Shown here piece by piece: positions 21,371-43,419 of a stretch of DNA of 64,000 nt (within the stretch, counting starts at the first letter, position 1; the number at the start of each line of letters is the position of its first letter). The translations under genes were made by a program, and so were the position numbers. The stretch is from Gemmobacter sp. (lineage in GTDB: Bacteria > Pseudomonadota > Alphaproteobacteria > Rhodobacterales > Rhodobacteraceae): contig JBAYSY010000005.1 of the NCBI GenBank assembly GCA_041675885.1, positions 7,652 through 71,651 on the forward strand, written 5' to 3'. A model generated the notes under the pieces. It made no database searches, was not told where the DNA came from, and saw only the letters and a list, made by a program, of their open reading frames with translations.

Positions 21371-21371
21371 A

Positions 21372-24113: not shown

Positions 24114-25607
24114 ATGCACAGGACGGATGATACCGGGACATCTTCCGGCCCGATGCCACCGGGTGGCACGGCGGGCGGGGGGACGCTTGCCCGGCAGGTG
24201 GCCGGGGCGGGGCCGCCGTCGCGCCGCCCTGCCGCCATGCGCCACTGGAAGGCGATCGGCCTCGGCACCCCGGTCTTTGCCGCCATCGTGCTGATCGTCT
24301 GCGGCCTCATGGCCGGGCTGGGCATCTGGATCAACGCCAATGCCCGCGCCGTGGGGGTGCAGGCGGCGGCCGAGACCAACGCCTTTTACATGGACCTTCT
24401 GTTCGAGCCGCTGCTTGAGGGCCTGCCGCGCGACCGGGTGCTGCCGCCGCAGATCGAAGGGCAGCTTGACATGGTGCTGTCCGAGGGGTTTCAGGATCGC
24501 TCGATCGACACCGCGATCATCTGGTGGCCCGACGGAACCATCGCCTACAGCACCGACAAGAGCCTGACCGGAACCCGGATCCTGTCCGGGAACCTCGAAC
24601 GCGCGCTTCAGGACGTCATCGTGGCCAAGCTGATCGAAGGCGGGCCGGAGAGCGGGCACAACCAGTCCGGGCACGGGACCACCTTTCTGGAAATCTACGC
24701 GCCGCTGCACGACAGCCGGACCGGCCAGGTCATTGCCGTTGGCGAGTTCTATCAGGACGCGGGTCATTTCGCCGCCGGGCTGCGGCGGCAGGGCTATGCG
24801 ATCTGGGGCGTCGTCGGCACCACCACCGCGCTGCTGCTGGCGCTGCTGTTCGCGACCGCGATCCGGGCCGGGGCGGTGGTGGGTGCGCAGCAGGACGAAT
24901 TGCGGCGGCACCTGCGCGCCTCGCAGGAACTGGCGGAACAGAACGCCACCCTGCGCCGGGCTGCCGATTCCGCGCGGCTCGACGCCTTCCGCATCAACGA
25001 GGACATGCTGAACCGGATCGGCGCCGATCTTCATGACGGGCCGCTGCAACTGATGAGCCTGATCGTGCTGCGCCTCCGGGGGATCGCGCCGGACCGGGAC
25101 AAGACCCCGGCCGAACTGGCCGAGGAGGACAAGACCATCGGGCTTGCGACCCAGACCATCCAGGAATTGCGCGAACTCTCGCACGGGCTGGTGCTGCCGG
25201 AACTCGGGACGCTCGGCGTTACCGAAACGCTGGCGCTTGCCGCCGCGCGCCACGAGAACCGCACCGGCACCCCGGTCGAGACCCGGTTCGGCGACCTGCC
25301 GCACGACCTGCCCGCCGCGCTGAAGATCTGCCTTTACCGCATCGTGCAGGAGGCGCTGAACAACGCCTTCCGCCATGCCGGGGGCCTTGGCCAGTCGGTC
25401 CACGCCCGGGCCGACGGCGGGCGGATCGAGGTCGTCGTCAGCGACGAGGGGCCGGGGATGGACCCGGCGGAGGCCGGGATCGGGCTGGGAATGCCGGGGC
25501 TGGCCCGGCGGCTCCAGTCCTTCGGCGGCAGTCTCGGGGTGGTGTCGCACCCGGGCGGGGGCACGCGGATCACCGCGTATCTGCCGCTGGACACGCCGGG
25601 GCCGTGA
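24114..25607 (+). CDS. Membrane sensor histidine kinase (HisKA_3 / NarX-like class)
   Basis: Two TM segments flank a periplasmic region of about 190 aa. H-box RIGADLHDGPLQ. HATPase_c motifs (EALNNAFRHA, DEGPGMD, GLGMPGL). An alternative start lies at 24237. Confidence 0.8.
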   Translation: MHRTDDTGTSSGPMPPGGTAGGGTLARQVAGAGPPSRRPAAMRHWKAIGLGTPVFAAIVLIVCGLMAGLGIWINANARAVGVQAAAETNAFYMDLLFEPLLEGLPRDRVLPPQIEGQLDMVLSEGFQDRSIDTAIIWWPDGTIAYSTDKSLTGTRILSGNLERALQDVIVAKLIEGGPESGHNQSGHGTTFLEIYAPLHDSRTGQVIAVGEFYQDAGHFAAGLRRQGYAIWGVVGTTTALLLALLFATAIRAGAVVGAQQDELRRHLRASQELAEQNATLRRAADSARLDAFRINEDMLNRIGADLHDGPLQLMSLIVLRLRGIAPDRDKTPAELAEEDKTIGLATQTIQELRELSHGLVLPELGTLGVTETLALAAARHENRTGTPVETRFGDLPHDLPAALKICLYRIVQEALNNAFRHAGGLGQSVHARADGGRIEVVVSDEGPGMDPAEAGIGLGMPGLARRLQSFGGSLGVVSHPGGGTRITAYLPLDTPGP

Positions 25608-25619
25608 CGGCGCCGCGCC

Positions 25620-26288
25620 TCAGTGCAGCCGGGGGCCGCCCTGCGGCTCACCCGCACCGGCCGCAAGTTTCTGCGCCGCGAGAACCACCTCGATCCGGTT
25701 GCGGACGTTCATCTTCTGCATCAGGATCGTCATATAGTGTTTGACGGTCTTTTCGCTGATGTCCAGATGGCTTGCGATTTCCCTGTTGGTCTTGCCCTTG
25801 AGCAGATGCCGCACGATCTGTTCCTCGCGCAGGCTCAGCGACAGGGCCTGCAACGCCGCCCGGCGCATCGACGCGTTCCGAAGCGCCGAGATCACCTTTG
25901 CCGCAAGGCTCTGGGTGACGTAGGTCTCGCCCTTCGCGACGGAACGGATTGCCGCCGCCAGTTCCGACGCCGTGCTGCCCTTGATGACATAGCCATGCGC
26001 CCCGGCCTCCAGCGCGCGCACCGCATGTTCGATCGCCGAGGATGCGGTGAAGACCAGGATCCGGATGCCGGGGGCCTGCTGGCGGATCGCCGGAATCGCC
26101 TTGAAGGCGTTTCCCGGCATGTCGAGATCGAGCAGGACCACATCGACCTTGCCCGGTTTCGACAGCGCGACGGCCTCGGTCGCCGATGTGCCCTTTGCCG
26201 TCACCGTGAAATCCCGCGACCCGGCGAATACACCGGCCAGACCTTCCAGAAAAATCGGGTGGTCGTCGAAAAGCCCCAGTTTCATCAT
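25620..26288 (-). CDS. NarL/FixJ (LuxR-type HTH) response regulator
   Basis: MMKLGLFDDHPIFLEGL..., receiver Asp in VVLLDLDMPG, and a C-terminal LuxR HTH (LSLREEQIVRHLLKGKTNREIASHLDISEKTVKHYM). Confidence 0.9.
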   Translation of the reverse strand: MMKLGLFDDHPIFLEGLAGVFAGSRDFTVTAKGTSATEAVALSKPGKVDVVLLDLDMPGNAFKAIPAIRQQAPGIRILVFTASSAIEHAVRALEAGAHGYVIKGSTASELAAAIRSVAKGETYVTQSLAAKVISALRNASMRRAALQALSLSLREEQIVRHLLKGKTNREIASHLDISEKTVKHYMTILMQKMNVRNRIEVVLAAQKLAAGAGEPQGGPRLH

Positions 26289-26780
26289 GAAAAACAACCT
26301 CTTGGAACGGCGGAATGACAGCACGACTGCAAGTCGTCCAGAATGGACCATGCCCCTTTCGCAACCTGTGGGACTCCGGCACCGCCCTGCCTGTTGCAGG
26401 AAGGCCCCGCCGCCACCGATTCGAGACGGTTCCGCGCCTCGAATGCCTGCATCATTGCAGGCGCCCGGACAGGCGCCCCGGAACGGGGCCGACGACTGTC
26501 CGGCCGGGAATCAGACCGATCCGGCTGGATTTCCCCCTGTGTCCGCAGCATTTCGTTGCATTTTGTTGTGAACCTGAATTTAAGCACGATTCCGCCGATT
26601 CATCAAGAAACAACGTGCCGGAAACAGGTTGCATGAGGCGGATGCGCCCTGAAAAGCCGCCGGATTGCCGGGCCGGACCCATTCACCGACACATTCAGGG
26701 CGGAAAACACCCGATTCGGCTGTCAAGCGGAATATTCCCGTCGGCGGCGCGGCGCGCATCGGCCGGGTCGGCATTCGTGG

Positions 26781-28106
26781 TCAGCGTTCGCGGAAGGCGC
26801 GCGCGAACTGGTCGGTGACCGGGCGGACAAGGTATTCAAGCGCGGTGCGGTCGTCGGTGGTGACGAAGACCTCGACCGGCATCCCCGGCAGCAAGGCCAG
26901 ATCGCCGAGCATGTCGCGCCCCGCATCGGTCAGGTCGAGGGTGGCGATATAATACGCCTCGGCCGCGCCGGACTCGCGCGTTGTCGCGGCCGAGACGTGC
27001 CGCACCGTGCCCGGTATCTCGGGCGTGGTGCGGTGGTTGAAGGCGGAGAACCGCAGCCGCGCCTCCTGCCCGACCCGCACCTGGTCGATACTGGCGGGCG
27101 GGATGCGCGCCTCGATCCGCAGCGCGGCATCGACGGGCACGATGGAGACCACGACTTCGGCCGCCGAGATCACGCCGCCGATCGTATGAACCATGATTTC
27201 ATTGACCACCCCGTCGCTCGGGGTGCGCAGATCGGTGCGCGACAGCCGGTCTTCAAGCACGTGGCCACGTTCGACCAGTTCACCCAGCCGGGCCTCGACA
27301 TGGCTCAGCTCGCGCTGGGCCTCGGTGCGGGCAAAGTCGTCGATCGCCATGATCTGGATGTTGATTTCGTTGATCCGGGTGCGGGCGCGGGCGATGGCGG
27401 CGTCGATCTCGCCGCGTTCGCCGGCAAGCCGCGCCACGTCGCGGCCGATGGCATAGACCCGCGCCGTCTCGATCAGGTTCTGTTCGGCCAGTTGCCGGAT
27501 ACGCGCCTGTTCGGCCCCCACCAGAACGATTTCCTCATGCTTCGAGTCGCGCTGCGCCTTGAGCCCGGCGATCTCGTCCTCGATCTGCTCGATCCCGAGG
27601 CGGAGCTGTTCCTTCTGCGCCTCGCGGTGCAGCCGGTTGCCGCGGAACAGGTTGCGCTCACCCTCCATGGTCACGGCGATCTCGGCGCCTGCCTGAAGCA
27701 GCACGGCGGGGAAGGCCAGGGCCTCGTGGCCGTCGCGCTCGGCGATCAGCCGCGCCCGCCGGGCGCCGAGTTCAAGGATCTGCGTGCGCACGATCGTCAG
27801 TTCCGCCCGCGTCGCCGCATCGTCGAGCCGCAGCAGGATCTGCCCCTCCCGCACCGTATCGCCTTCGCGCACGGCGATTTCCGAGACGATGCCGCCGTCG
27901 CGGTGCTGCACGGTCTTGAGGTTGCCGTCGACCACCACCGCGCCATTGGCGATCACCGCGCCCGAAAGCCGCGCGGTCGCGGCCCAGCCGCCCACCCCGG
28001 CAATCAGCGCAAGCCCGGCCACCAGCCCGAACAGCACCCGCCCGCCGAAGCGGTAGGGGCCGGGATCATCGCCCCGGGGGGCCGCGGGAAGAGGGGTCGT
28101 CTTCAT
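26781..28106 (-). CDS. HlyD-family type I secretion membrane fusion protein
   Basis: N-terminal TM, then LSGAVIANGAVVVDGNLKTVQHRDGGIVSEIAVREGD, a coiled-coil middle region, and a C-terminal beta-barrel domain. ATGA overlap with the upstream gene. Confidence 0.9.
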   Translation of the reverse strand: MKTTPLPAAPRGDDPGPYRFGGRVLFGLVAGLALIAGVGGWAATARLSGAVIANGAVVVDGNLKTVQHRDGGIVSEIAVREGDTVREGQILLRLDDAATRAELTIVRTQILELGARRARLIAERDGHEALAFPAVLLQAGAEIAVTMEGERNLFRGNRLHREAQKEQLRLGIEQIEDEIAGLKAQRDSKHEEIVLVGAEQARIRQLAEQNLIETARVYAIGRDVARLAGERGEIDAAIARARTRINEINIQIMAIDDFARTEAQRELSHVEARLGELVERGHVLEDRLSRTDLRTPSDGVVNEIMVHTIGGVISAAEVVVSIVPVDAALRIEARIPPASIDQVRVGQEARLRFSAFNHRTTPEIPGTVRHVSAATTRESGAAEAYYIATLDLTDAGRDMLGDLALLPGMPVEVFVTTDDRTALEYLVRPVTDQFARAFRER

Positions 28107-30163
28107 GCCGTCACCTCGGTGATGGTCAGCACATGGCTGCCCTGGACGAGAATGATGGTCTCGAACGAGTCATCGCGGTTGAGGTCGGCCTCGATCACGG
28201 TTCTGCGGATCCCGTCCAGCTCGTCGTGGCGGACGACGAAGGGCACCTTGTCGTCGTCGAAAGCCTTGCCGTAGATTTTCTTGAAGTCGGATTCCAGCTC
28301 GTCGATGATTTCCTTGAACAGCTTGTATTCGGATATCCTTATCCTGTCGCCGTATTTGAAGTTGTGGATTTCGTGGACCACGGTTTCGCCGCCGCCGGTG
28401 AATTCGAACAGGCTGGAGCCGCCGCCCGCGACAAGCACCACCGGGTCGTCGCCGATGACGAAATGATCGTCGCCATCGCCGCCGGCGATCTCTTCGAAAC
28501 CGTCGAAACCGTCCTCGCCGATCTCGGCGCCCGAGGCGATGCCGTTCACCAGATCGACATGCACCCCTTCGGCGGTTTCCGAAAAGTCGAGCGTGTCCCA
28601 GCCCGCACCGCCATGGAAGATGTCGTTCTCGCCGTCGGGGCTGACCAGCAGGTGATCGCCGCCCGTGCCGCCCAGCACCAGATCCCGCCCCGGCCCGTCG
28701 GTGATGAAGGCGCTGCCAGAGCCGGAAACGATGGTATCGTCGCCCGCCCCTGCGTGGATCGTGTCGCTGCCGGACCCGCCGACAAGCAGATCGTCGCCGT
28801 CACCCCCGAGGATCAGGTCGTCACCATCGCCGCCTTCGATGGTATCATCGCCTTCGCCACCGTGGATCGTGTCGTCGCCCGCATCGCCCGTCAGGATATC
28901 GTTGCCCGCGCCGCCACGGATCAGGTCGTCGCCGTCGCCGCCAAGGATCACGTCGTCGCCCGCCCCGCCATGGATCGTGTCATCGCCCGCATCGCCCATC
29001 AGGATATCGTTGCCCGCGCCGCCACGGATCAGGTCGCCGCCGTCGCCGCCGTGGATCACATCGTCGCCCGCGCCCCCGAAGATGGTGTCGTTGCCGGGGC
29101 CGCCGAAGATCGTGTCGTTGCCCCCGCCGCCGTGGATCAGGTCGTCGCCCTCACCGCCCATGATCACGTCGGCGCGGCCGCGGCCGAGGATGTTGTCGTC
29201 GCCCGCGCCGCCGTCGATCTCGTTGCGCCAGATGCTGCCGATCAGCAGGTCGCGGGCCTCGGTGCCCTCGATCCGCACGAAGGGGCGGGCCTCGAAACTG
29301 GCGAATTGCTCGACCGCGAATTCGCCGTCGCTGACCAGATAACGCAGGGTGACGGTGTGGGAGTGCGGGTCGTCGGTGGCATAGTCCCAGACCTCGCCGC
29401 GGCGGGTCAGGGTGCCGTTGCCCGAAACCAGCGTCAGCCCGGTCACCGAAAGCGGATCGCCGTCCGGATCCCGACTGTTGCGCAGCAGATGCGCCAGCCA
29501 GATCACCCCGACCGCGCCACCGGCGATATCGGCAAGCTGCACCGGCCCGCTGTGGCGCGGGGCGCGATTTGTCCCCCGGTCCGGATCATCCTGTTCCGGC
29601 CCGTCTTCCGGTCCGTCTTTCAGGTGGTCCCCGGCGCCGGGGCCGGGCCGGGTTCCCGGCGGGCCGGGGGTCAGCGGCATGGCGGCGCCGGGGCCGGTGG
29701 CCCAGGGGCTGTTGGCCGGAAACGGCACCGCCCAGCCGCTGACCGCCCCGAGGAAGGGCATCGGCAGCTTGCCGAAATCCTCACCCGTCGCGATGGTGGT
29801 GACTTGCAGGAACGGCGGCCCGCCATGGCCGGGTATCGTGCTGCGATGCGTCAGCAGGCTGCCCCAGTCCTCATCGGCCAGCCAGTGGCCTGGCCCGGAT
29901 TCGCGCCCTTCGGCCCCGGAGGGGGCAGGCCGGGCCGCCCGTGGCGCCGGATCCGGCGCGGCCCCGGCTTCGCCCCCTGCCTCGTCCCCGGGCACCTGTG
30001 CGGCCCCGGCCGGCACAAGGGACTTGAGCCATGCCGCCACCGCGACCAGCAGCATCGCGATCACATGCGGCTTGCGCGATGCCCCGGGGTCGTGCCGGTC
30101 GGCATAGGCTTCGGCCGGATCGGCGGGCTTCGTTCCGGTTCGGGCGCCCTTGACCTCGATCAT
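28103..30163 (-). CDS. RTX (haemolysin-type Ca-binding repeat) protein with a cadherin-like segment and an N-terminal hydrophobic helix; probable second T1SS substrate or accessory
   Basis: More than 15 GGxGxD nonapeptide repeats. A DPDGDPLSVTGLTLVSGNGTL segment. An N-terminal HVIAMLLVAVAAWLKSLV helix. The C-terminal GDRIRIS...ADLNRDDSFETIILVQGSHVL resembles a T1SS C-terminal target domain. ATGA overlaps on both sides. Confidence 0.85.
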   Translation of the reverse strand: MIEVKGARTGTKPADPAEAYADRHDPGASRKPHVIAMLLVAVAAWLKSLVPAGAAQVPGDEAGGEAGAAPDPAPRAARPAPSGAEGRESGPGHWLADEDWGSLLTHRSTIPGHGGPPFLQVTTIATGEDFGKLPMPFLGAVSGWAVPFPANSPWATGPGAAMPLTPGPPGTRPGPGAGDHLKDGPEDGPEQDDPDRGTNRAPRHSGPVQLADIAGGAVGVIWLAHLLRNSRDPDGDPLSVTGLTLVSGNGTLTRRGEVWDYATDDPHSHTVTLRYLVSDGEFAVEQFASFEARPFVRIEGTEARDLLIGSIWRNEIDGGAGDDNILGRGRADVIMGGEGDDLIHGGGGNDTIFGGPGNDTIFGGAGDDVIHGGDGGDLIRGGAGNDILMGDAGDDTIHGGAGDDVILGGDGDDLIRGGAGNDILTGDAGDDTIHGGEGDDTIEGGDGDDLILGGDGDDLLVGGSGSDTIHAGAGDDTIVSGSGSAFITDGPGRDLVLGGTGGDHLLVSPDGENDIFHGGAGWDTLDFSETAEGVHVDLVNGIASGAEIGEDGFDGFEEIAGGDGDDHFVIGDDPVVLVAGGGSSLFEFTGGGETVVHEIHNFKYGDRIRISEYKLFKEIIDELESDFKKIYGKAFDDDKVPFVVRHDELDGIRRTVIEADLNRDDSFETIILVQGSHVLTITEVTA
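28863..29078. repeat. Tandem 2 x 108-bp duplication inside the RTX gene
   Basis: Hand alignment of 28863-28970 against 28971-29078 gives about 92% identity. Both encode DLIRGGAGNDIL(M/T)GDAGDDTIHGG. Confidence 0.85.
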
Positions 30164-31986
30164 GCCTCGCCCCCCATCATCCTGGCCCGCTGCACCCGGT
30201 CAGGCAGCACCTGATGCGCCGCCCCGGGAACAGGGTCGGCGGCGGCGGGATCGACGGCGGGCGGCGCGGATTCGGCCGCGGGGCGCATGACCTTGGTGCG
30301 GATGATCTCGTCCCTTGGCCCGAACGCGGTCAGCCGCCCGCTCTGGATCACCGCGACATGATCGACGGCGGCAAGCGCGCTTGGCCGGTGCGCGACCAGC
30401 ACCACGATGGCGCCGCGGGCCTTGGCGGCCCCGATCGCGGCGGTCAGCGCCGCCTCGCCCTCACCGTCGAGGTTGGAATTGGGCTCGTCCAGCACCACGA
30501 GGAACGGATCACCGTAAAGCGCGCGGGCCAGACCGATCCGCTGGCGCTGCCCGCCCGACAGCGCGGTGCCCATGGGGCCGAGCATGGTGCCGTAGCCTTC
30601 GGGCAGGCGCAGCACCATTTCGTGGACCCCGGCGGCGGTGGCGGCGGCAATGATGCGTTTCGGATCGGGCACGGGATCGAGCCGGGCGATATTGTCGCCG
30701 ATGCTCGCGTCAAGCAGCGCCACCTCCTGCGGCAGGTAGCCGATATGCTGCCCGAGCACTTCTTCGGACCAGTGCGGCAGTTCGGCACCGTCAAGCCGGA
30801 TGCCGCCGCGCAGCACCGGCCAGATCCCGGTCAGCGCGCGCAGAAGCGTGGTCTTGCCGCCGCCACTCGGGCCGATGATCCCCAAAGCCTCGCCTGCGCG
30901 CAGGTTGAGGCTCAGATCGCTCAGCAGCACGGCCCCGGTGCCCGGCGCGGCCACGGTCACGTTCTCGACCTTGAGGCTGCGGCACGGCGCGGGCAGCGGC
31001 ATGGGCTGGTCCTGCTCGGCCAGCACCTGCGCGGTTTCCTTCAGCCGACCGTAGGCACCGCGCGCCTGCACGACATGCTTCCAGTTGCCGATCGCCATGT
31101 CGATCGGCGCCATCGCCCGGGTCGCCGCGACCGAGGCGGCGATGATCGCGCCGGGCGACAGCTCGCCCCGGATGGTCAGGAAGGCCCCGAGCCCGAGGAT
31201 CGACGATTGCAGGATCATCCGCAGCACCCGCGACAGCGCGCCGAAGGTGCCGCTGATGTCGCTGGTACGGGAATGGACCTTCAGATGTTCGTCATTGGCG
31301 GCGGTGAAGCGGTGGATGGCGCGGCGGCTCATGCCCATCGCCCTGAGGATCTCGGAGTTGCGCGCGTTCGAATCCGCCACCCGGTTGCGGGCGATGCCGG
31401 TCTGCTGCACCGCCTTGCTCCAGCGCCGGGTCAGGAGTTCCGCGACCACGGTCAGCACCGTCAGCACCAGCGCCCCCGCGATGGTCACCGCACCCAGCAG
31501 CGGGTGCAGGACATAGACGAAGGCGAGAAACAGCGGCATCCAGGGCAGGTCGAACAGCGCGACCGGCCCCTGGCTGCCCATGAAGCCGCGCAGCGTGTCC
31601 ACGTCGCGGCCCCGTTCCAGTGCCTCGGCGGTGGAAAAGCCGTAGCGCGGCATGTCGATGGTGATCTCATGCGCCACCGGCGCCAGGCGGCGGTCGAAGC
31701 GCGAGCCGACCCGGACCAGAAGCTGCGAGCGGATCACGTCGAACACGCCCTGAAAGCCGTAAAGACCAAGTGCCAGCACCGAAAGCGCCAGCAGGGTGGG
31801 CACGTTGCCGCTGCCCAGCACCCGGTCGTAGATCTGCAACATGTAGAAGGCGCCGGTCAGCGCCAGCACGCTGATGATCCCCGAAAGGATCAGCACGAAC
31901 AGGAAGATGCCGCGAAACCCGCGCATCAGGCTTCCGGCTTCTCGGCCTCTGGCTCCGGGTTCGATCCTGTTCACGCGCGCCCCCAT
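30160..31986 (-). CDS. Type I secretion ABC permease/ATPase (PrtD family)
   Basis: FYMLQIYDRVLGSGN motif, 6-TM domain, Walker A GPSGGGKTT, signature LSGGQRQR, Walker B VVLDEP. The start is uncertain: ATG at 31986 is preferred, with GTG at 32040 or ATG at 31926 as alternatives. Confidence 0.85.
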   Translation of the reverse strand: MGARVNRIEPGARGREAGSLMRGFRGIFLFVLILSGIISVLALTGAFYMLQIYDRVLGSGNVPTLLALSVLALGLYGFQGVFDVIRSQLLVRVGSRFDRRLAPVAHEITIDMPRYGFSTAEALERGRDVDTLRGFMGSQGPVALFDLPWMPLFLAFVYVLHPLLGAVTIAGALVLTVLTVVAELLTRRWSKAVQQTGIARNRVADSNARNSEILRAMGMSRRAIHRFTAANDEHLKVHSRTSDISGTFGALSRVLRMILQSSILGLGAFLTIRGELSPGAIIAASVAATRAMAPIDMAIGNWKHVVQARGAYGRLKETAQVLAEQDQPMPLPAPCRSLKVENVTVAAPGTGAVLLSDLSLNLRAGEALGIIGPSGGGKTTLLRALTGIWPVLRGGIRLDGAELPHWSEEVLGQHIGYLPQEVALLDASIGDNIARLDPVPDPKRIIAAATAAGVHEMVLRLPEGYGTMLGPMGTALSGGQRQRIGLARALYGDPFLVVLDEPNSNLDGEGEAALTAAIGAAKARGAIVVLVAHRPSALAAVDHVAVIQSGRLTAFGPRDEIIRTKVMRPAAESAPPAVDPAAADPVPGAAHQVLPDRVQRARMMGGEA

Positions 31987-32044
31987 CGTTCCGCACCGGT
32001 CCGGGGGCGGGGCGAAACACCCCGCCCCCGCTGTTGTCACGGGT

Positions 32045-35000
32045 TCACAGGATGAAGTTGTCCTGTGTCAGGTCGTGCGACCCCTTGATGCTGATCCTGA
32101 AGTCGGCCCCCGCACCGTCCGAGACATTGCCCTCGACCACGGTCCAGGTGTCGCCGTCGCGGAACTCCTCGCTGATCATGAGTTGCCCCTTGCCGGTGAA
32201 GCCGTCCGAAACGATGGTGAACGACTGCCTGCCCGCGGTGCCCGCATCGGCGTCCATATGGCTCAGGTCGATGCGGTCGCCGGGGGTAAAGCCCAGGATC
32301 ATGTCGCCGTCGGCATCCCCCGCCGAGTGGAAGCGGAACACGTCGTCGCCGCTGCCGCCGTCCATGATGTTGACGGCCCCGCTGGCGATGATCAGGTCGT
32401 TGCCCGATCCGGTGACGATGTTCTCGATGCTCCAGATCGTGTCGGTGCCGGTCTGGACACTGGTCACCGTGCCGCGGCCGCCAAGGCCCGATCCCAGGTC
32501 GGCGGTGATACCGGCGCTGATCGCCGACATGTCGAGCGTGTCGCTGCCCTCGCCGCCGTCGTAGAAATCGTCGCCGTCGCCGGTCCCGGCCATGATCACG
32601 TCGTCGCCACCGCCGCCGAACACGGTGTCGCTGCCCGAACCCGCGTCGATCAGGTCGTTCCCGTCGCCGCCGAAGATGCGGTCGTCACCGGCGTCGCCGA
32701 ACAGCATGTCGTCGCCCGCGCCGCCGAACAGGTCGTCGTTGCCCGCGCCGCCCAGCGCGATGTCGCGCCCGTCGCCGCCGATGAAGACATCGGTCCCGGC
32801 CGTGCCGATGAACACCCCGCCATCGGCCCCGCCCACGGTGACGCCGGTTCCGGACGGCGGGGCGGGGTCGGCCGGCGGTTCCGGGGCCGTGGTCAGCACC
32901 GGCTCGCCGTCTTCGATCAGCCGCAGTTGCGATACTTCACCGAAGAAGGTGATGCTGTTGCCGCCGCCCGAAACGGTGACCGAGCCATCGGCATTGAGCA
33001 CCGCCGAATAGTCCCCGTCCTGCGCACCTTCAGGCAACAGGATCTGGTCCTGCGGCCGCAGTTCCCCGGCCAGCATGTCGTGGCCGCCGCCGGACTGGAA
33101 CACCACCCGGTGCGAGGATTGCAGCCCGGTGATGTCGATCCCGGTGCCGTTCTCGCTGCCGAAGACACGGATGGTGTTCTGGCTGAGCCCCGATCCGGTG
33201 AAGTTGCCGTGGAACGAGAAGGTGTCGCCGCCAGCCGTGCCCGAGGTGCCGCCGGTCAGCGCGCTGCTGTTGAGGACCAGTTCCTCGACCCCGCGCAACT
33301 CACCGATGATCGAATCGAAACCCTCGCCGTTGCGGGTGACGATGATCGTGGTGCCGCTGTGCAGGTTGGCCGCGTTGAAGGCGTTGTCGGTCGATTGCGT
33401 GATCCAGGCGCTGCGGGTCCAGATCTGGAAATGCTCCGCGCTGTCATCGCCGTTGACGATGAAAGTATCGGTGCCGTTGCCGCCGTTGATCACGTCATGG
33501 CCATCGCCGACATTCCAGATGATCGCATCGTTACCGTTGCCGCCGTCGATCACGTCATCGCCCGGCCCGCCGATCAGCGTATCGGCGCCGTTGCCGCCGA
33601 GCAGCGTGTCGTTCCCCTCGCCGCCCGACAGGCTGTCGTTGCCGGTGCCGCCGGTCAGAGAGTCGTCACCGCCGTTACCGAAGATCGTATCGGCCCCGTT
33701 GCCGCCGTCGATTCTGTCGGCCCCTTCGGTCCCCATGATCAGATCCGGGCCGTTGCCCCCGGCAGAGACCATCCCCACCACCCCGGTCACGTCCGAGATC
33801 ACCTGTTCGGTGGTGCCGCCCTCATCCTCGAAGGTCACGACCACCCGCAACGGGCTGTTGACCTGCGCCGCGCCCGGCGTGAAGTTCGTGCCGTTGGCGC
33901 CCGGAATGTCGGTCCAGTCGCCGCCGGTCAGCACCTGCCACTGAATGGCCATGCTGCCCGGCACGATCCCGTCGGCATCCTCGATCTGGCCCAGCGCGAC
34001 CGCAAGCGCGATGCCCTGTGTGGGCGCCATGCTGCTGAGGACAGGCTGGCCGGTGGCCGGGGTGTTCTCCGGTTCGGGGTCCGGGTCATCCGGGAACAGG
34101 TCCGCGACCGCAACGGTCTGGTCGCCGAATTGCAGCATCTCGATATTGTAAAGCGTGTCGGTCCCGTCCGAGACCCGGTTGCGCCCGGTGGTCGGGTTGA
34201 CCGAGTTGGGCGTCATCGTGTGGTGATCCACGGTGAGGCTGCCGTTCGCGTTCAGGGTGATGGTGTAGTTCTCGAACACATCCCAATAGACGGCGGTGTC
34301 GATGCCGCTGTCGTCCCACAGGACTTCCCGCACGATCCTGAGCTGGCCGGGGTTGAGCACCCCTTCGACCATCCAGCTTGTCAGGGGCCTGGTCACGCCG
34401 CCGATCGTCACGTCGCCCTGAAGGCTGTCCACCGTGGCGATCTGGCTTCCGGTGCCGTCCGGCCCGCTCATGATCGCGACCCGCACGTTCAGCCAGGCGT
34501 CGCCGTCGATCACGTCGTCGCCGCCCCGGCCCTCGATCAGGTCGCCGCCGCCGCCGCCGAGCAGGATGTTGCCCGCGTCGAACACCAGCCTCATGTCGCC
34601 CGAGCCGTCGGCCCAGTATTCGGCTTCCTCCATCAGGTCTTCGGTGATGATCTGGTCCAGCCCGGCGATCCGCGCGATCCCTTCAAGGTCCAGTTCGTTG
34701 AACATGAAGTTGCCTTCGGGCGTCGGGTCGGGGATCTGGGTGGGAAGCAGTTCGTCGATCTCGTTGGTGCGGTCGTCGCCCCGGATCACGTCGTCGTAGA
34801 CCCAGCCCGAGACCGCCTCGACCTGGCTGTAGCGGTCGCGCAGCACCTCGATCGGCAGCGAGGTGAAGACCTCGATGTTCATGTCGGCGTCGGCCGGGGT
34901 CATCTGCCCCTTGTGGATCACCCAGTCGAAGCCCCACATGCCGATGAACTTCTGGATGCCCTCGCCCGCGAACATGATGTCGTCGCCCGAGTCGGCGTCG

Positions 35001-38000
35001 TAGTCGGTATCGCCGCTGCCGCCGTTCAGCACGTCATGGCCGATGATGGCCGAGTTGAAGAACAGGTCGCCGGTATCGCCCGCGATGTAGTCGAACCGGC
35101 CGCCCGCCTCGACCCAGTCGTCGCCGGGGCCGCCGAACAGGATGTCGATCCCGTCGCCGCTGATGATGAAATCATCGCCGTTGCCGCCGAAGATCTCGTT
35201 GCCGTCCTTGCCGCCGATCAGGAAGTCGTTGCCGTCGTCGCCGAACATCACCGCAAGGCCGGTGCCGCCGTGGATCACGTCGTTGCCGTCGCCGCCCTTC
35301 AGCACCGAGACATCGCCGATCGGCGTGCCGGTGTTGATGATGATGTCGTCGCCCGCGCCGCCCTCGGCCTGATCGACGCCCTCGCCGGTCTCGATCCGGT
35401 CGTTGCCGGGGCCGCCCCAGATCATGTCATCGCCGCCGCCGCCGATGATGTGGTTTGGGCCCTCGCCCCCCCGGATCACCGTATGGTCGAAGCCGTTGTA
35501 GCGAAGGTAGGCCACGCCGTCGTTGTCCTCGGGTGCGATCCGCTCCACCAGCGGCGACACCGCGTCGAGGAACGGATCGTCATGGGTCGGGTCGTCCTGA
35601 CCGGTCAGCATGATCTGCTTGGCCAGATCGACGTAGAACGAATGATCCGGCGCGAAGAACACGTTGTCGGGCAGGGCAAAGCCGGTCTCGCCCAGGTCGG
35701 TGGTGCGCAGCATCATCTTGCCAAGCGAGTTGGTCTCGATCTCGTTCAGCAGGTTCAGCCCCTGCAAGCGCGCCAGATAGTAGAAACGGTCGCCGTCCTG
35801 AAGGTTCTCCAGCTGAAGCTCGAACACGAAGGCGAAGGTCGAACCGAGCATCCCGCCGAAGGGCATCTTGCGCTCGGCCAGCCCGCCGATCCACAGGTCG
35901 ATACTGTCCACCCCGGTTTGCGAGGCCGGGCCGTTCAGGAAATCCACCCGGTCGGCGGGCGCATCATCGTTGCCGAACACCAGCGCGATGGCGGCGTCGC
36001 GCTTGTCCTCGATGCTGCTGACGCCGGTGATGGTCTCATGCGTGCCGTAGGCCGCGATGAAATTGACGATCGAGGCCGGGTTGGCCAGATGCAGCGCGAA
36101 ATCCGACCAGCTTTCATAGGGCCGCAGCCGACCGTCGCCATGCGACATTTCCATGAACTGCGCCCGCGCCTCGTTCAGCGTCGGCATCCCGGTATCGCGG
36201 CCGCGGGCAAGGTTGATCGTCGCAAGGTCGAGCGGCAGCCCGACCAGTTCGTTGCGCAGCACGTCGGTCACGAATTCGTCGATCTCGTTGCCGACCTGGC
36301 CCGACATGCCGCGGATGATCGCGCCCGAGACCTCGGCCTGGCCCATGTCGCCCAGCGCGTTGTCGAGATTGCCGAAGCGGACCGGGTTCAGGAAGGCGTC
36401 GAACAGGTCGATGCTGACGCTGTTGCCTTGCGCGTCGATCGTGTCGATGGTCTGGTTCAGCATCGAATGGCCGAAGCGATAGATCGCATGGGCGAATTCG
36501 GCGAAGATCGCCGGGTCGATCTCGGGGTCCGGCATCACGTCGAAGATGTCGATGTCGGGCTGGATCGAGCGGGCGAACTCCTCGAACACCAGATGCTGGT
36601 ATTCCATTTCGGTGACGAATCGCGCGGTCTGGAACAGCCGCTCGCCGTGCCATGCCACGTCATCCACGCTTGCGGGCAGGCTGTCCGCCGGGGCCGCCAG
36701 CCATTCGTTGATGAAGTCGAGATCGCCGGTGGCCAGCACCACCTGCTTGACGTGATCGACCAGCCGGTTGTGCTCGGCGTGGAACACGAAATGGATCGCG
36801 CTCAGGCCGATGTTCTCGTTGCCGCGCCCGTCGCCGGTGATGTAATGCGCGTCGAGAAGCTCATCGTCGTAGTCGGGAAGCTGGCCCATCACGGCCGGGC
36901 CGCCGTTATAGCCGATCTCGTCGTCATCGTCGGGCCGCAGGTTGCCGTTCGCGTCAGTTTTCGGCGCCGCCGTATGGGCGATGTCGTCGAGGAAGGCGAT
37001 GCCGGTGCGGGCCGCACCTTCCGCGCTCGGGTCGATCGGGGCGGCCGGGTTGCCTTCAAGATAGACCGGCGCGCCTTCGCCATCGACGCCCACCATCAGT
37101 TGCGGAAAACCGTTCGGCCCGGGAATGAACGCGCCGTAGGGATCGACCGCCACCACCGGCACGTTGAGCACATCGAGGTCGGTCAGCGCGATCCCCAGCA
37201 TCTCCCTCACATGGGTCTTGAGGTCGCCCCAGGTGACAAGGCCGCCCCCGGTTTCCAGCAGCCGCCCGGTGTTCACCGGCCCGTCGGGCGTCATCTCGTA
37301 CTCGCGCAGGAACACCTGATGCGACGGGTGCGAGGTATAGGTCTGGTTCTGATCGACCCAGGGCGTCACCACGTTGCGGGCGTCGTCGCCGGTGGTGGCG
37401 CGGGTCAGAACCATGAAGTTGGTGTGCGGGCTGTCGGGGTCGTAAAGCGGGTCGTCCTCCATCAGCGGGATATACACCGTGCCGTTGCCGCCCTTGGCCA
37501 CGAGGTCGAGCCCGTGGTCGAAGAACTGGCCGAACAGCGTCAGCAGCGCGTTGAACGACGCCGAAAGCCCCTCATCCGGCGCGGTATTGGGAATCCGCAC
37601 CGTCGGCCCGTCCATCTCGATCCCGTGTTGGTCGAGCAGGTCGCCCAGCGTCGTTTCCGCTGTGTCCAGGGCGGTCTGGGCGGCATCGACCTGCCCTTGG
37701 GCAAGCTCGATAAAGGCCGGAATCCCGCTGGTCTCGGCCTGTGCAAGCAGCGCCTCCGCCACGGCAAGCGCCGCCGCCGCCGTCCCGACCCCGGCATGGG
37801 CGCCGGAAATCCCGGCGATGGTGTCGAGCAGCTCCTGCCCCTCAAGCTCCAGCGGCTTCAGCGCGGTGGCGATGGCGGCCGGGTTGTTCAGGGTCTGATC
37901 GACGATCAGGTTCGAGATCAGCCGCGGCTCGTAATCCACCACGCCGCCCGGCAGGCCGTAATCGTTGTTGTTGCCGCCGGTCGCCCCGTCATACATCGCG

Positions 38001-38242
38001 GGCATCGCGCCGTTGCCCGACCGGAAATCCACATCGGTCAGTTGCGGGAACGGCTCGCCCGAGGCGCCGAACTGCTCGCGCCCCGGCACGAAGTTGTTGT
38101 AGCTGCCATCGACCGTCCGCAGCCCCCAGGGCAGCAGCGAACTGCCCACGAGCGCGTCGAGCGATTCGCCGCCCGCGTGGCGTTCCGCGATGATGATCTG
38201 TTGCAGGATGAATTCGAGGTCGTTCCGGATCAGCTTGACCAT
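32045..38242 (-). CDS. Giant animal-haem-peroxidase-domain protein fused to multiple RTX blocks and a T1SS C-terminal target domain
   Basis: The ATG at 38242 ([16 protein letters not shown]) is preceded by GGGGGA. Distal-His motif [10 protein letters not shown] (His codon 37514-37516). Proximal-His motif [10 protein letters not shown] (His codon 36467-36469). Many GGxGxD repeats. The C-terminus is ...[17 protein letters not shown]...[19 protein letters not shown]. Confidence 0.9.
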
Positions 38243-38333
38243 GGTATCCCCCAGATGTCCGAAAGGCCGCACAGGACGGCGTGTCAATCCGACCTCAGGG
38301 TGCCGTGGACCGGCCCGGCGCGATATCTCCGGT

Positions 38334-38400
38334 GGTCCGGTGAATTGATGGCCGAAAGGTCCGGAATTCACCGGACCAAGGTCCGAACATTTCCCGGACC
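38334..38400. repeat. Array of five GGTCCG(G/A)/CCGGACC heptamers, including a 13-bp perfect inverted repeat
   Basis: GGTCCGG at 38334 and 38358, CCGGACC at 38371 and 38394, GGTCCGA at 38380. GGTCCGGTGAATT (38334-38346) is the exact reverse complement of AATTCACCGGACC (38365-38377). Confidence 0.85.
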
Positions 38401-38485
38401 GAAGTCCCGGCCAGGGTCGGCGGCGGGCATGGCGCGGGGGCGCCGTCGGGCCGGTTGATCCTGCCAGACGGCCTGTGTATTTTCC

Positions 38486-38495
38486 GTGTCCACAA
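38486..38495. promoter_or_regulatory. Candidate GntR/FadR-type half-palindrome (GTGTCCACAA) just upstream of the GntR gene
   Basis: 9/10 match to the reverse complement of the TTGTGGACAA core found at 39259-39268. It lies 14-23 nt upstream of the ATG at 38509. Confidence 0.35.
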
Positions 38496-38508
38496 TGGAG
38501 TGGCGCGA

Positions 38509-39243
38509 ATGGCGAAACAGGACACCGGCACTGGCTCTGGCACCGGCACTGGTTCCAGCATCGGGACGGAACGCAAGCGCGGCTCCGGGGTGAAGACGGT
38601 CTTCACCATGTTGCGCGACGAGATTCTCGACCTCACCCTGCCGCCGGGCAGCCCGCTGGACGAGGTGCAGCTTGCCGAGCGTTTCGCCATGTCGCGCACC
38701 CCGATCCGCGAGGCGCTGGCCCGGCTTGCCGGGGAGGGGCTGGTCGAGACGCTGCCGAACCGCTCGACCATGGTGGCGCGGATCGACTTTCTGAACATGC
38801 ACACCTTTTTCGACGCGCTGACGCTGATGTATCGGGTCACCACCCGGCTTGCCGCGCAGCATCACCGGCCCGCCGATCTGCACATCATCCGCGCCCGGCA
38901 GGCGGAATTCGCCGCGGCGGTGGCGGCCGAGGACGCGCTGGCGATGATCTCGGCCAACCGCGAGTTCCACGCCGCGATCGCCGAGGCCGGGCGCAACCCC
39001 TATTTCACCGCGCTGTTCTGCCGACTGCTGGACGAGGGGCGGCGGATCCTGCGGCTTTACTACCAGTCGTTCAACGACCGGCTGCCGGAACGCTATGTGA
39101 CCGAACACGAGGAAATCATCGCCGCCGTCGAGGCGCGCGATATCGGGCTGTGCGACCGGCTGGCGCGGGCCCATGCCGACCAGATCGTGCGCCAGATCCA
39201 GGACCTGTTTTCCCGCGACCGGCGGCAGGATGTGCCGCTCTGA
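38509..39243 (+). CDS. GntR-family (FadR/FCD subfamily) transcriptional regulator, probable hydroxyproline-cluster regulator
   Basis: Winged-HTH [25 protein letters not shown] with a helical FCD-type C-terminal domain. It has a low-complexity [11 protein letters not shown]-terminus. Confidence 0.85.
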
Positions 39244-39255
39244 CATCCTGCACAG

Positions 39256-39271
39256 TTCTTGTGGACAAGAA
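39256..39271. promoter_or_regulatory. Candidate GntR operator: TTCTTGT-GG-ACAAGAA
   Basis: Perfect 7-bp inverted arms fitting the FadR-type t.GT.nn.AC.a pattern. It lies between the regulator and the DHDPS-like gene. Confidence 0.5.
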
Positions 39272-39349
39272 TTATGCAATGCACGATGATACGGGCAAAG
39301 GGACGGATTCGCCCCTGTAGCCCATACCCCAGCCCGCAAAGGAAAGCCG

Positions 39350-40315
39350 ATGGATACCGAGATCTTCACCGGGGTGATCCCGGCCCTGATGACGCCCTGC
39401 AAGGCAGACCGCAGCCCCGATTTCGACGCGCTGGTGCGCAAGGGCCGCGAACTTGTCGCCATCGGCATGTCGGCGGTGGTCTATTGCGGCTCGATGGGGG
39501 ATTGGCCGCTTCTGACCGACGCGCAGCGGATGGAGGGGGTGGAACATCTCGTCAAGGCCGGGCTTCGGGTGATCGTCGGCACCGGCGCGATCAACACCGC
39601 CTCCGCCGTCGCACTTGCCCGCCACGCGCAGGAGGCGGGCGCGCATGGGCTGATGGTGATCCCGCGGGTTCTGTCGCGCGGCCCCTCTCCGGTGGCGCAG
39701 CGAGCGCATTTCAAGGCAATCCTGACCGCCGCGCCCAAACTGCCCGCGATCATCTACAACAGCCCGCAATACGGCTTTGCGACCCGCGCCGACCTGTTCT
39801 TCGCGCTGCGGGCCGAACATCCGAACCTGGTCGGGTTCAAGGAGTTCGGCGGCAAGGACGACATGCGCTACGCGGCCGAGTTCATCACCTCGGCCGATGA
39901 CGGGGTGATCCTGATGGTCGGGGTCGATACCTGCGTGCTGGACGGTTTCGTCAACTGCGGCGCGACCGGCACGATCACCGGAATCGGCTGCTGCCTCCCG
40001 CGCGAGGTGCTGCATCTGTGCAACCTCAGCCGGGCGGCGGCGGCGGGCGACCCCGAGGCCCGCCAGCGGGCGCAGGAGCTGGAGCAGGCGCTGGCGGTGC
40101 TGTCGTCGTTCGACGAGGGGCCGGACCTGGTGCTTTACTACAAGTACCTGCTGGAGATGGAGGGCGAAGCCGAATACCGGCTGCATTTCAACGAATTCGA
40201 CGCCCTGACCGAAAGCCAGCGCGGCTATGCGACGGCGCAATACCGGCTGTTCAAGGCCTGGTATGAGGAGTGGAGCCGCTTGCCCGGCGCGGTGCAAAGC
40301 TGCAAGGTGGCCTGA
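39350..40315 (+). CDS. Dihydrodipicolinate synthase-family enzyme, probable delta1-pyrroline-4-hydroxy-2-carboxylate deaminase
   Basis: DHDPS/NAL-family fold (GVIPALMTPC..., GTGAINT..., FKEFGGK with the Schiff-base Lys context). The specific function is assigned from hydroxyproline-cluster context only. Confidence 0.7.
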   Translation: MDTEIFTGVIPALMTPCKADRSPDFDALVRKGRELVAIGMSAVVYCGSMGDWPLLTDAQRMEGVEHLVKAGLRVIVGTGAINTASAVALARHAQEAGAHGLMVIPRVLSRGPSPVAQRAHFKAILTAAPKLPAIIYNSPQYGFATRADLFFALRAEHPNLVGFKEFGGKDDMRYAAEFITSADDGVILMVGVDTCVLDGFVNCGATGTITGIGCCLPREVLHLCNLSRAAAAGDPEARQRAQELEQALAVLSSFDEGPDLVLYYKYLLEMEGEAEYRLHFNEFDALTESQRGYATAQYRLFKAWYEEWSRLPGAVQSCKVA

Positions 40316-40399
40316 GCGGGGTCAACACTCTGCGCAACAAAGGGCGGCGGCCGACACGATCAACAGACGCCACCCTTCGCCGTTCCGGGGCCACGGAGA

Positions 40400-41437
40400 T
40401 CAGTTCACCGCGTCAAGGCCCAGTTCGAACAGCCGGTCAAGCTGGGCCGTCTCGGCCGCGGCAAGGGTCACGCCCCCGGCCTCGGACGTCGCGCGCGCGG
40501 CAAAGCGACGTTGCGAGGGAAGCCGCGCGCCCTGCCCGAGGATCGCGTCGAACAGCACCTCGGCCCGGGCGAAAGGATCACCGGGACGGCCCGCCGCGAA
40601 CCGCGCGGGATCGAAGGCCAGCACCAACTCGCCATGGAACGGCGCAAGCGCGGTGCTGCCGAGATAGTCCAGCACCTCGGGGCTGGTGCGGTCGCCGATC
40701 ATCACCCCTGCCAGCAGTTCGATCATCGTGCCGATGGCGGAACCCTTGTGGCCGCCGAACGGCAGCATCGCCCCGGCAAGCGCCGCTTCGGGGTCGGTGG
40801 TGGGGTTGCCGTCCGCATCCATCGCCCAGCCCTCGGGCAGGGGCTTGCCGGCGCGGCGGTGCAACTCGATCTCGCCCCGGGCGGCGACCGAGGTGGCGAA
40901 GTCGAAGACATAGGGCAGCGCCCCCGGCCGGGGCCAGCCGAAAGCAAAGGGGTTGGTGCCCAGGAGCGGCCGGTTGCCGCCCGCCGGGGCCACGGTGGCA
41001 TAGCTTGGGCACATCACCATGGCGGCGAGACCCTCGGCCGCGACGGCCTCGACCTCGGGCCAGAGCGCGGCGAAATGGGTGCAGTCGTTGATCACCATCG
41101 CGGCAAGACCAAGTGAACGGGCGCGCGCGGCCAGATGCGGCAGGCCCAGTTCGAAGGCAGCGTTGGAAAAGCCGCCCTGCGCATCCACCCGGACGATCGC
41201 CGAACCGTCGTCGGGAAGCAGCGCGGGCTGCGCGTCGGGGCGGACCTTGCCCGCCTTCACGGTGCGCAACACCCCCTCGATCCGGTAGACGCCATGCGAC
41301 TTGCAGGCGTCGCGTTCGCCTGCGGTGATCACCCGCGCCAGCGCCCCGGCCTGCACCGGAACCAACCCGGCCCGGGCAAAGATCTCCTCTACCCGGTCTT
41401 GCAGGGCCGGGATCGTTACTGTGGTGGTCTCGGTCAT
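40400..41437 (-). CDS. Ldh_2 (malate/L-lactate dehydrogenase type 2) family oxidoreductase, probable delta1-pyrroline-2-carboxylate reductase
   Basis: The ATG at 41437 is preceded by GAGGA. Ldh_2-family motifs are present (GKVRPD, HFAALWPEVE, LPFGGHKGSAIG). The function comes from context. Confidence 0.7.
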   Translation of the reverse strand: MTETTTVTIPALQDRVEEIFARAGLVPVQAGALARVITAGERDACKSHGVYRIEGVLRTVKAGKVRPDAQPALLPDDGSAIVRVDAQGGFSNAAFELGLPHLAARARSLGLAAMVINDCTHFAALWPEVEAVAAEGLAAMVMCPSYATVAPAGGNRPLLGTNPFAFGWPRPGALPYVFDFATSVAARGEIELHRRAGKPLPEGWAMDADGNPTTDPEAALAGAMLPFGGHKGSAIGTMIELLAGVMIGDRTSPEVLDYLGSTALAPFHGELVLAFDPARFAAGRPGDPFARAEVLFDAILGQGARLPSQRRFAARATSEAGGVTLAAAETAQLDRLFELGLDAVN

Positions 41438-41476
41438 CGGATCCTCGCTGGTTGTAACCGCCTCGCTGCATGCACA

Positions 41477-41486
41477 AAGTATACAT
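41477..41486. promoter_or_regulatory. Weak candidate GntR-type site AAGTATACAT
   Basis: GT-N2-AC palindromic core 40-50 nt upstream of the Ldh_2 gene start. It matches only by pattern. Confidence 0.2.
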
Positions 41487-41808
41487 AATACCGCCGCGCG
41501 CAACCGCGGGGATGGTCAAGCATCACAACCGATTCTGCCACCGCCCCCGGCAGGCCCTGCTCCGGAAAGGTGACGCAAAGGCAACCGGCCCCGCCGCGCC
41601 GGAAAACCCCGCCACCCGCGAAAGCCCGCCCGAAACCCCGCGGGACGTTCGCCCGAACCGGCCGTTTTCGCAGCCGATCCGCCTTTCAGATGCAGGTGAT
41701 TCAGGTCTTTTGTGCGCCAATTGTATTTGTGATTGCGTCGCTGCGTTTGACGCAGGATAGTGAGGCCAGAAGAACGAATAATCCGCATCAACTCAGGGAG
41801 AAAGTGGA

Positions 41809-43407: not shown

Positions 43408-43419
43408 AGGAGGCGCGGG

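Follow-up and report, generated by a model that had tools for sequence, protein, structure and literature searches.

A predicted membrane-anchored RTX protein encoded between the ABC transporter and adaptor genes of a type I secretion cassette with a MopA/PehA-type peroxidase

The closest described relatives of the locus reported here center on giant haem peroxidases. MopA-type “long peroxicins” combine an animal haem peroxidase region with a haemolysin-type calcium-binding region, and MopA-dependent Mn(II) oxidation has been described in Erythrobacter sp. SD-21, Aurantimonas manganoxydans, Roseobacter AzwK-3b, and Pseudomonas putida GB-1; the MopA of Erythrobacter sp. SD-21 carries a single peroxidase domain and has a length of 2,138 aa (PMC6247904). 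Enzymes of this type are reported to be hard to express and purify, with an unclear route to the cell exterior (PMC6247904). PehA (PepA) of P. putida KT2440 is an extracellular protein of 373 kDa with two peroxidase domains (PMC9518985, PMC3396595); it has been seen on the cell surface, and the flanking type I secretion system (T1SS) genes pehBCD have been proposed as its exporter (PMC9518985). We analyzed a stretch of 64,000 nucleotides from Gemmobacter sp. (GenBank assembly GCA_041675885.1, contig JBAYSY010000005.1, positions 7,652 to 71,651), the whole of which we call the window, and find a peroxidase of this family encoded with a PrtD-type ATP-binding cassette (ABC) exporter, a membrane fusion protein (MFP), and, between these two, a second repeats-in-toxin (RTX) protein that we call RTX2. 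The cargo family and its T1SS linkage are already known, and the new part is RTX2, which, judging from gene order and sequence comparison, is a fixed part of this T1SS subclass and not a passenger.

Four consecutive minus-strand open reading frames (ORFs), at 32045-38371, 30160-32040, 28103-30163, and 26781-28106, make up the locus (coordinates are those of the window, and features lie on the minus strand unless stated otherwise). The window has a G+C content of ~68%, and its 42 ORFs were scanned for known families with Pfam and NCBIfam models. The first gene encodes the cargo, a haem peroxidase-RTX protein of the MopA/PehA long-peroxicin type (32045..38242), 2,065 aa long from the ATG at 38242, which is the most likely start. 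It is followed by a PrtD-type T1SS ABC permease/ATPase (30160..31986; 608 aa from the ATG at 31986), which has ABC_membrane and ABC_tran domains, scores 653.6 bits with TIGR01842 (cut-off 510.15), and lacks a C39 or C39-like domain (CLD); by RTX2, a cadherin/RTX protein of 686 aa predicted to be bitopic (28103..30163); and by a HlyD-family T1SS periplasmic adaptor, the MFP (26781..28106; 441 aa), with HlyD domains and a TIGR01843 score of 347.3 bits (cut-off 208.65). The ABC stop and the RTX2 start share an ATGA at 30160-30163, and the RTX2 stop and the MFP start share another at 28103-28106. An earlier sequence-only reading of this DNA had proposed the same four genes, with ATGA overlaps on both sides of the inserted RTX gene, and the ORFs, the domain scores, and the sequence all agree with it. 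That reading also saw no TolC-like gene, and indeed no OEP/TolC family appears among the 42 window ORFs; the gene tables of six related loci (L080-L085) likewise contain no TolC-family gene. The TolC-family factor is often unlinked in T1SS, and its absence from the window leaves membership of this secretion class possible; we take the TolC partner to be encoded elsewhere.

We surveyed 79 loci around relatives of the window peroxidase, one genome per species, by tblastn with the window proteins and mechanical ORF calls. This sample is skewed toward close relatives of the window peroxidase; 58 of the 79 loci were informative, and 21 were too short to judge. The order peroxidase-ABC-RTX2 homologue-MFP is found in 33 of the 58 informative loci. 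The others comprise two Rhodobacteraceae loci (L032 and L066) with a different gene of 364-366 aa between ABC and MFP, nine in which ABC and MFP are adjacent and downstream of the peroxidase, six in which the adjacent pair lies upstream and divergent (including the Pseudomonas two-domain type), and eight with no T1SS inside the flanks. The position of RTX2 is constant across Rhizobiales, Rhodobacterales, Halomonas/Vreelandella, and one Pseudomonas. In L010 (Rhizobium sp. Root482, 19179-22348), the RTX2 gene is split into ORFs at 19179-20777 and 21455-22348, by a frameshift or by an assembly error in the repeats.

The transporter genes carry the same signal. ABCs from the RTX2-type loci and from L032 and L066 are 57-71% identical to the window ABC, as against 36-50% in the other loci, and in a neighbor-joining tree all 35 fall into one clade, apart from the ABCs that adjoin their MFP. 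Halomonas/Vreelandella ABCs are nested among those of alphaproteobacteria within this RTX2-linked clade. The MFPs of the same cassette elsewhere are 43-62% identical to that of the window. Furthermore, the ABC stop and the next start overlap as ATGA in 24 of the 35 loci of the clade, and the spacing between RTX2 and MFP is short across cassettes (-4 to ~+42 nt). We also ran the comparison in reverse, starting from RTX2 relatives found in protein databases with a linker-free chimeric alignment: five of five sit in the same cassette (in L084, the contig ends within the upstream gene), and the annotated plasmid pTAV3 of Paracoccus versutus carries the same cassette as genes EQ718_RS17870-17885. 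The sequence-only reading had argued that the inserted gene is no passenger, and had named its absence from most orthologous operons as the observation that would undo this; the gene is instead present in most of the informative operons (33/58), and the ATGA overlaps (24/35), the monophyletic ABCs, and six reverse checks point the same way. A search of a plasmid collection returned no near-identical record, the best matches being Paracoccus plasmids at ~76% DNA identity. In the literature that we could reach (many papers in subscription journals were beyond it), we found no description of this gene order or of an anchored RTX partner.

RTX2 begins with a short tail and a hydrophobic segment, which we studied in family alignments of 24 orthologues and 27 database members and in an AlphaFold2 (AF2) model built from 27 sequences (mean per-residue confidence, pLDDT, 67.9). 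The tail (residues 1-32, MIEVKG...Y...SRKP; 30068..30163) is predicted to be cytoplasmic, has a net charge of +2, and follows a family consensus MI(I)xVKGTK...RY...S.TP in which I2, K5, and Y20 are each conserved at 90% or more; the region before the helix has a median length of 33 aa across the family. The predicted transmembrane helix (residues 33-52, HVIAMLLVAVAAWLKSLVPA; 30008..30067) reaches a 19-residue Kyte-Doolittle mean of 2.12, is placed by AF2 at 31-49, and has an equivalent in 24 of 24 orthologues checked, where it ends AAYLKS.FP. Lys and Arg together number 3.4 per 15 residues before the helix and 1.3 after it, with an excess before the helix in 94 of 111 members. Hydropathy, this charge bias, and the AF2 model agree on a predicted N-in topology.

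No Pfam or NCBIfam model covers residues 1-196, and the existing annotation of RTX2 relatives goes no further than “cadherin-like domain-containing protein” or “Ca2+-binding RTX toxin-like protein.” A tail-helix profile of 57 positions retrieves at least 225 cluster representatives (E <=0.001; 50% identity clusters) among 1.84e9 proteins, and in the 150 matches listed the module lies at or near the N terminus. Among matches of at least 300 aa, 65 of 73 contain at least five RTX motifs. The sequence-only reading had made RTX2 an obligate stoichiometric partner or co-substrate and passed over its N-terminal anchor and long linker, which in our reading alter the kind of partner it can be.

The proteins encoded between ABC and MFP in L032 (20930-22030) and L066 (17310-18404) start with a tail of ~30 aa and a single helix, continue with a Gly-rich linker, and end in a C-terminal domain of no known family; they contain no cadherin or RTX sequence, and no Pfam or NCBIfam model matches them. 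As carriers of the RTX2 N-terminal module they were rejected: the tail-helix profile gives 12 bits (E 0.04) for the L032 protein and nothing for that of L066, and BLASTP of the L066 protein against the window RTX2 also finds nothing. They share layout and position with RTX2, with homology not established from the sequences.

Beyond the helix, residues 53-197 of RTX2 form an acidic, Pro/Gly-rich linker (29573..30007) predicted to be disordered (AF2 pLDDT <50 at residues 51-196). Across the family, it measures a median of 154 aa from helix end to cadherin domain (5-95% range 130-200) and consists of 18% acidic, 7% basic, 14% Pro, and 12% Gly residues. Within it, a semiconserved element (residues ~113-155; 29699..29827) with the consensus PxxFxxxDSP...(A/P)ANDNxxGG ends in a degenerate ANDN motif. 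The core N[DG][ND] is found in 63 of 97 members at a median of 97 aa past the helix (range 84-110), and its distance to the cadherin domain is more variable (36-111 aa); in the window, the motif has decayed to ANS (N151), 99 aa past the helix. This fixed spacing suggests docking or processing at a set depth in the envelope.

The C-terminal half of RTX2 resembles a T1SS substrate. A cadherin-like immunoglobulin (Ig) domain (residues 198-295; 29279..29572) scores 43.8 bits with Cadherin_5 (cut-off 26.5) and is modeled with a pLDDT of ~85-93; in the family alignments, the domain opens NRAPR..GPV.L.D and includes DPDGD.LS. In RTX2 it leads into a beta-roll (residues ~296-600; 28364..29278) with a HemolysinCabind score of 174.9 bits and 19 nonapeptide motifs. 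AF2 models both the Ig domain and the beta-roll confidently and the C terminus less so. A PDB fold search with the model gives only generic matches, best to CyaA RTX blocks and also to cadherin/Ig folds. The last ~86 residues (601-686; 28106..28363) are the distal part of a C-terminal domain (~520-686) presumed to act as cap and secretion signal, a function that is predicted from its likeness to the cargo. The last ~170 residues of the two proteins are 25% identical (BLASTP E 9e-9), and close to their ends both families have the pattern T.(V/I)......DF.I.(I/L).G.H.L in common; the RTX2 proteins of L014, L017, L018, and L020 have a cargo-like H.LT..DFIL motif. As a pore-forming RTX toxin, RTX2 was rejected: it has one helix only and scores 107 bits with NF033943 against a cut-off of 1000.

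The cargo itself matches An_peroxidase (PF03098) with 201.3 bits (cut-off 25) and HemolysinCabind with 160.9 bits, and has >1,830 homologues, the best at 63% identity. Its catalytic region occupies residues 1-900 (35543..38242), and C-terminal to it lie nine HemolysinCabind stretches and 25 nonapeptide motifs, which by motif spacing form RTX blocks at residues ~934-1045, 1495-1600, and 1822-1905. The C-terminal ~160-aa domain (32048..32527) is presumed to be an RTX cap and T1SS secretion signal, and its pattern is kept in orthologues. The haem-site motifs are intact: FGQFFDHG (Asp242, His243), GDGRGNEN (Arg473, Glu476), and YRFGHS (His592), whose five residues are invariant in a 20-sequence alignment. 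The best PDB relative is lactoperoxidase (8s6c_A, E 2e-34), with which the GQF.DH, GD.R.NE, and YR.GH motifs line up. From what is known of lactoperoxidase, we take the five residues to be the distal His and Arg, the proximal His, and the haem-linking Asp and Glu. The PERCAL insertion motif G-x-D-G-x-x-[GN]-[TN]-x-D-D matches the cargo in neither its strict nor its relaxed form; one stretch is loosely similar. These sequence features identify the cargo as a member of a known family, the MopA/PehA long peroxicins of the peroxidase-cyclooxygenase superfamily. The sequence-only reading was thus right to call it a haem peroxidase with RTX repeats, on the strength of the An_peroxidase score and the intact haem-site residues, and mistaken, at the level of the family, in calling the system and its biology uncharacterized, given that the family is known as MopA/PehA (PMC6247904, PMC3396595) and a T1SS link has been proposed for PehA (PMC9518985).

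The junction between the peroxidase and ABC genes differs from the two overlaps that follow it. A 58-nt spacer separates the peroxidase stop (32047-32045) from the ABC ATG (31986) and contains a GC hairpin (CGGGGGCGGGGTG-TTT-CGCCCCGCCCCCG; 32002..32030) with a perfect 13-bp stem and a folding free energy (dG) of -33.4 kcal/mol. The sequence-only reading had all four genes translationally coupled; this stands for ABC, RTX2, and MFP, with their ATGA overlaps, and falls for the peroxidase and the ABC. With an alternative ABC start, a GTG at 32040 that lies 5 nt past the peroxidase stop, the hairpin would become part of the ABC coding sequence. We prefer the start at 31986 because the GTG start would run through the hairpin and because the lengths of orthologous ABCs (574-613 aa) fit the 608-aa product of the ATG.

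In related loci with the ABC after the peroxidase, nearly all have a strong hairpin within ~130 nt past the peroxidase stop, at a constant position with differing sequences. The median best dG of these junction hairpins is -30.1, random segments taken from these loci give -19.6, and in 33 of 44 loci the hairpin is stronger than all 12 control segments. The window hairpin has no T-run, and a consensus promoter/terminator scan is uninformative on that account; a T-run follows the junction hairpin in some loci (L030, L057, and L067). By analogy with the stem-loop between hlyA and hlyB, the hairpin may be a terminator-like attenuator or a stabilizer of the 3' end.

We tentatively favor a reading in which RTX2 is an envelope-spanning tether, anchored in the inner membrane and exported by the T1SS C terminus first. 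Owing to the hairpin, cargo mRNA would accumulate, and read-through would hold the export genes low, RTX2 thereby being made in ABC-like amounts. Its tail would remain cytoplasmic, and its single helix would remain in the inner membrane next to the translocon. The same ABC/MFP/TolC apparatus would engage the RTX2 beta-roll and C-terminal domain, recruiting the protein because these parts are homologous to those of the cargo, and would export it from that end. Calcium-driven folding outside would pull the chain until the anchor halts it, whereupon the acidic, Pro-rich linker of 130-200 aa would cross the envelope with the ANDN element at a set depth. The exposed cadherin-like, calcium-binding head would hold or organize the peroxidase, plus any Mn-oxide or matrix polysaccharide, at the surface, and the adjacent HisKA_3/NarL pair described below would control expression. 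The proposed surface role builds on the surface attachment of PehA in P. putida (PMC9518985) and on the binding of rhizobial exopolysaccharide by cadherin-like Rap proteins (PMC9298526). A more ambitious form of the proposal would make this a four-component T1SS subclass in which RTX2 is a threaded trans-envelope tether with a linker measured to the envelope and a head that captures or activates a MopA-type peroxidase and sites Mn-oxide formation; we regard that version as doubtful.

Several points weigh against the tether. The topology is a prediction from hydropathy, charge bias, and the AF2 model. A threaded RTX2 chain would block the translocon for the cargo, and we know of no T1SS substrate held by an inner-membrane helix. 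Fifteen related loci pair similar or larger peroxidases with ordinary ABC-MFP pairs and have no RTX2, and therefore RTX2 is not required for peroxidase export as such. One subclade (L005, L014, L017, L018, and L020) retains the helix and not the tail sequence, and in some orthologues the helix is followed by AxA-like sites. Finally, co-variation of the RTX2 and cargo C termini within loci is weak (permutation p ~0.03) and is not used as evidence.

RTX2 might instead be an ordinary second T1SS substrate, a calcium-binding adhesin or lectin released in full, with the helix acting only after secretion, by insertion into the outer membrane or the membrane of another cell or by oligomerization; we consider this possible, though unlikely. 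Pore-forming RTX toxins do take N-terminal hydrophobic segments through a T1SS, and RTX2 has both RTX repeats and a cargo-like C-terminal domain. Rhizobial cadherin-like T1SS substrates that bind exopolysaccharide, the Rap proteins, also offer a precedent (PMC9298526). A gene placed after the ABC with an ATGA overlap, however, would be expected to have the low expression of a transporter gene, and few cargo genes are like that; the conserved positive tail and single helix suit an N-in membrane anchor; and the fixed distance from helix to ANDN serves no obvious purpose in a free protein.

The same tail, helix, and long Pro-rich linker recall periplasm-spanning anchors, and RTX2 could be a type II inner-membrane protein inserted by Sec/YidC, with a layout like that of TonB or TolA, that chaperones, gates, or stabilizes cargo export as a translocon accessory and is never itself a T1SS substrate. 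Its stoichiometric coupling to the ABC would fit such a role, as would the proteins at the same position in L032 and L066, whose tail, helix, and Gly-rich linker come without RTX or a cargo-like C terminus; that layout favors an accessory role of the anchor, although it is not established that those proteins are homologous to the N-terminal module of RTX2. The RTX beta-roll and cargo-like C-terminal domain are, on the other hand, the hallmark of a T1SS substrate, and we know of no Sec-exported RTX proteins. On balance, we think this arrangement rather improbable.

It is highly improbable that RTX2 is a soluble calcium-binding protein of the periplasm whose hydrophobic segment, preceded by a long n-region, serves as a Sec signal peptide and is cleaved off. 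Small AxA-like residues do follow the helix in some orthologues (PASA|R in L002, for example, or AGA|A in the window), but such a site is absent from many members, the n-region, at a median of 33 aa, shows conservation of its own (I2, K5, and Y20), and the tail-helix module is specific enough for its profile to find at least 225 clusters. That RTX2 is a passenger adhesin gene inserted by chance between ABC and MFP, with no tie to peroxidase or transporter, is scarcely credible: its generic domains and annotation name would allow it, but conservation already contradicts it, in the constant position across 33 loci, the monophyletic ABC clade, the conserved 4-nt overlap, and the placement in the cassette of all family members examined for gene context.

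Past the MFP gene, and close to it, lie a NarL/LuxR-type response regulator (25620..26351; Response_reg and GerE domains) and, on the plus strand, a HisKA_3 histidine kinase (24114..25607; HisKA_3 and HATPase_c domains). In 46 of the 79 loci, a homologous response regulator lies no more than 10 kb from the peroxidase, with a homologous kinase next to it in most of these; the pair is usually divergent and immediately upstream of the peroxidase, occurs with or without RTX2, and is also present in L082, L083, and L084. It probably regulates the locus. In L084, a MetOD1-domain gene (7873-8445) lies between the MFP and the kinase. Biofilm-matrix genes adjoin some cassettes (L080, 13930-17290; L085, 20375-22818): Pseudomonas sp. 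NyZ704 has Fap amyloid genes there, and a metagenome contig has genes for curli CsgG/CsgF.

Upstream of the peroxidase, a divergent GntR/FCD regulator heads a hydroxyproline-type catabolic cluster (38455-49936) with a DHDPS-family enzyme, an Ldh_2 dehydrogenase, an amino-acid ABC importer, a D-amino-acid oxidase, two proline-racemase-family genes, and aconitase X; the cluster is not conserved with the cassette. A second T1SS pair on the plus strand (50247-53293) has the ordinary adjacent order (ABC, 50247-51983; HlyD-family adaptor, ~51854-53293); it lacks an obvious RTX substrate beside it, and its ABC falls outside the RTX2-linked clade. Elsewhere in the window, two minus-strand genes encode DUF11/DUF7507 repeat proteins (7686-16484, 2,932 aa; 16638-18758, 706 aa) and are followed by a gene (4075-7689, minus strand) whose 1,204-aa product has an outer-membrane beta-barrel at its C terminus; this group may be a separate surface-protein system. 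The gene at 2389-3312 (plus strand) encodes a von Willebrand factor A protein that bears a PEP-CTERM sorting motif, and a sulfotransferase gene adjoining a Branch/DUF5928 glycosyltransferase-like gene (54886-57438) may indicate synthesis of a sulfated surface polysaccharide.

The oxidation of Mn(II) that bacteria carry out with MopA-type peroxidases is of biogeochemical importance, and a conserved, dedicated export module with an extra partner gives the Mn-oxidase field concrete genes. With at least 225 clusters, the RTX2 family, which combines a predicted inner-membrane anchor with a substrate-like RTX body, is widespread, and it would represent either a new means by which a cell retains a T1SS product or a new accessory of the translocon.

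Among described systems, PehA-PehBCD of P. putida KT2440 resembles the window in having a giant animal-type haem peroxidase with C-terminal RTX and adjoining T1SS genes. It differs in its two peroxidase domains and in its contiguous outer-membrane protein, MFP, and ABC genes, among which is that of the outer-membrane factor and in which no gene intervenes between ABC and MFP. In our survey, the peroxidases of Pseudomonas-type loci (L050, L068, L072, and L074) are 37-44% identical to that of the window, and their ABCs belong to another clade. MopA resembles the cargo by architecture, with an N-terminal peroxidase region and a calcium-binding region at a similar length (2,138 aa in Erythrobacter and 2,065 aa here); Mn(II) oxidation by the window cargo is predicted only by family, and the strict PERCAL pattern is absent from its sequence. 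The MopA papers that we searched describe no export genes and no RTX2-like partner.

In hlyCABD of Escherichia coli, the cargo gene is upstream of the ABC gene, a stem-loop between them lowers transporter expression, the exporter consists of ABC and MFP, and TolC is unlinked. The window shares the cargo gene before the ABC, the intervening stem-loop, and the unlinked TolC; it differs in that hlyB and hlyD are adjacent, HlyB has a C39-like domain, and the E. coli operon has an acyltransferase gene and no anchored RTX partner. No acyltransferase gene of the HlyC type was found in our locus. LapA, exported by LapBCE and controlled by LapD/LapG, leaves the cell C terminus first, and an N-terminal element keeps its chain threaded, this element being a folded retention module seated in the outer-membrane channel, until LapG cuts it at a di-alanine. 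Both LapA and RTX2 would be kept at the N terminus, RTX2 by a 32-aa tail, one helix, and a disordered linker in place of a folded retention module. The window scans detected neither LapD nor LapG families, and the window ABC is of the PrtD type without a CLD.

The Rap (Ra/CHDL) proteins of Rhizobium leguminosarum, exported by PrsDE, have calcium-binding cadherin-like domains and act on surface or matrix polysaccharide (PMC9298526, PMC2275737), and they do so without typical RTX repeats (PMC3557214). RTX2 is like them in being an alphaproteobacterial T1SS-associated protein with a cadherin-like domain, and it is by this analogy that we propose it may bind polysaccharide. To our knowledge, Rap proteins lack a membrane anchor, and their genes lie outside the transporter operon. 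A parallel for the gene arrangement is rtxBDE of the MARTX systems of Vibrio, a T1SS subclass with an extra conserved gene in its ABC/MFP operon; there, the extra gene encodes a second ABC ATPase, whereas in the cassette described here it encodes a repeat protein.

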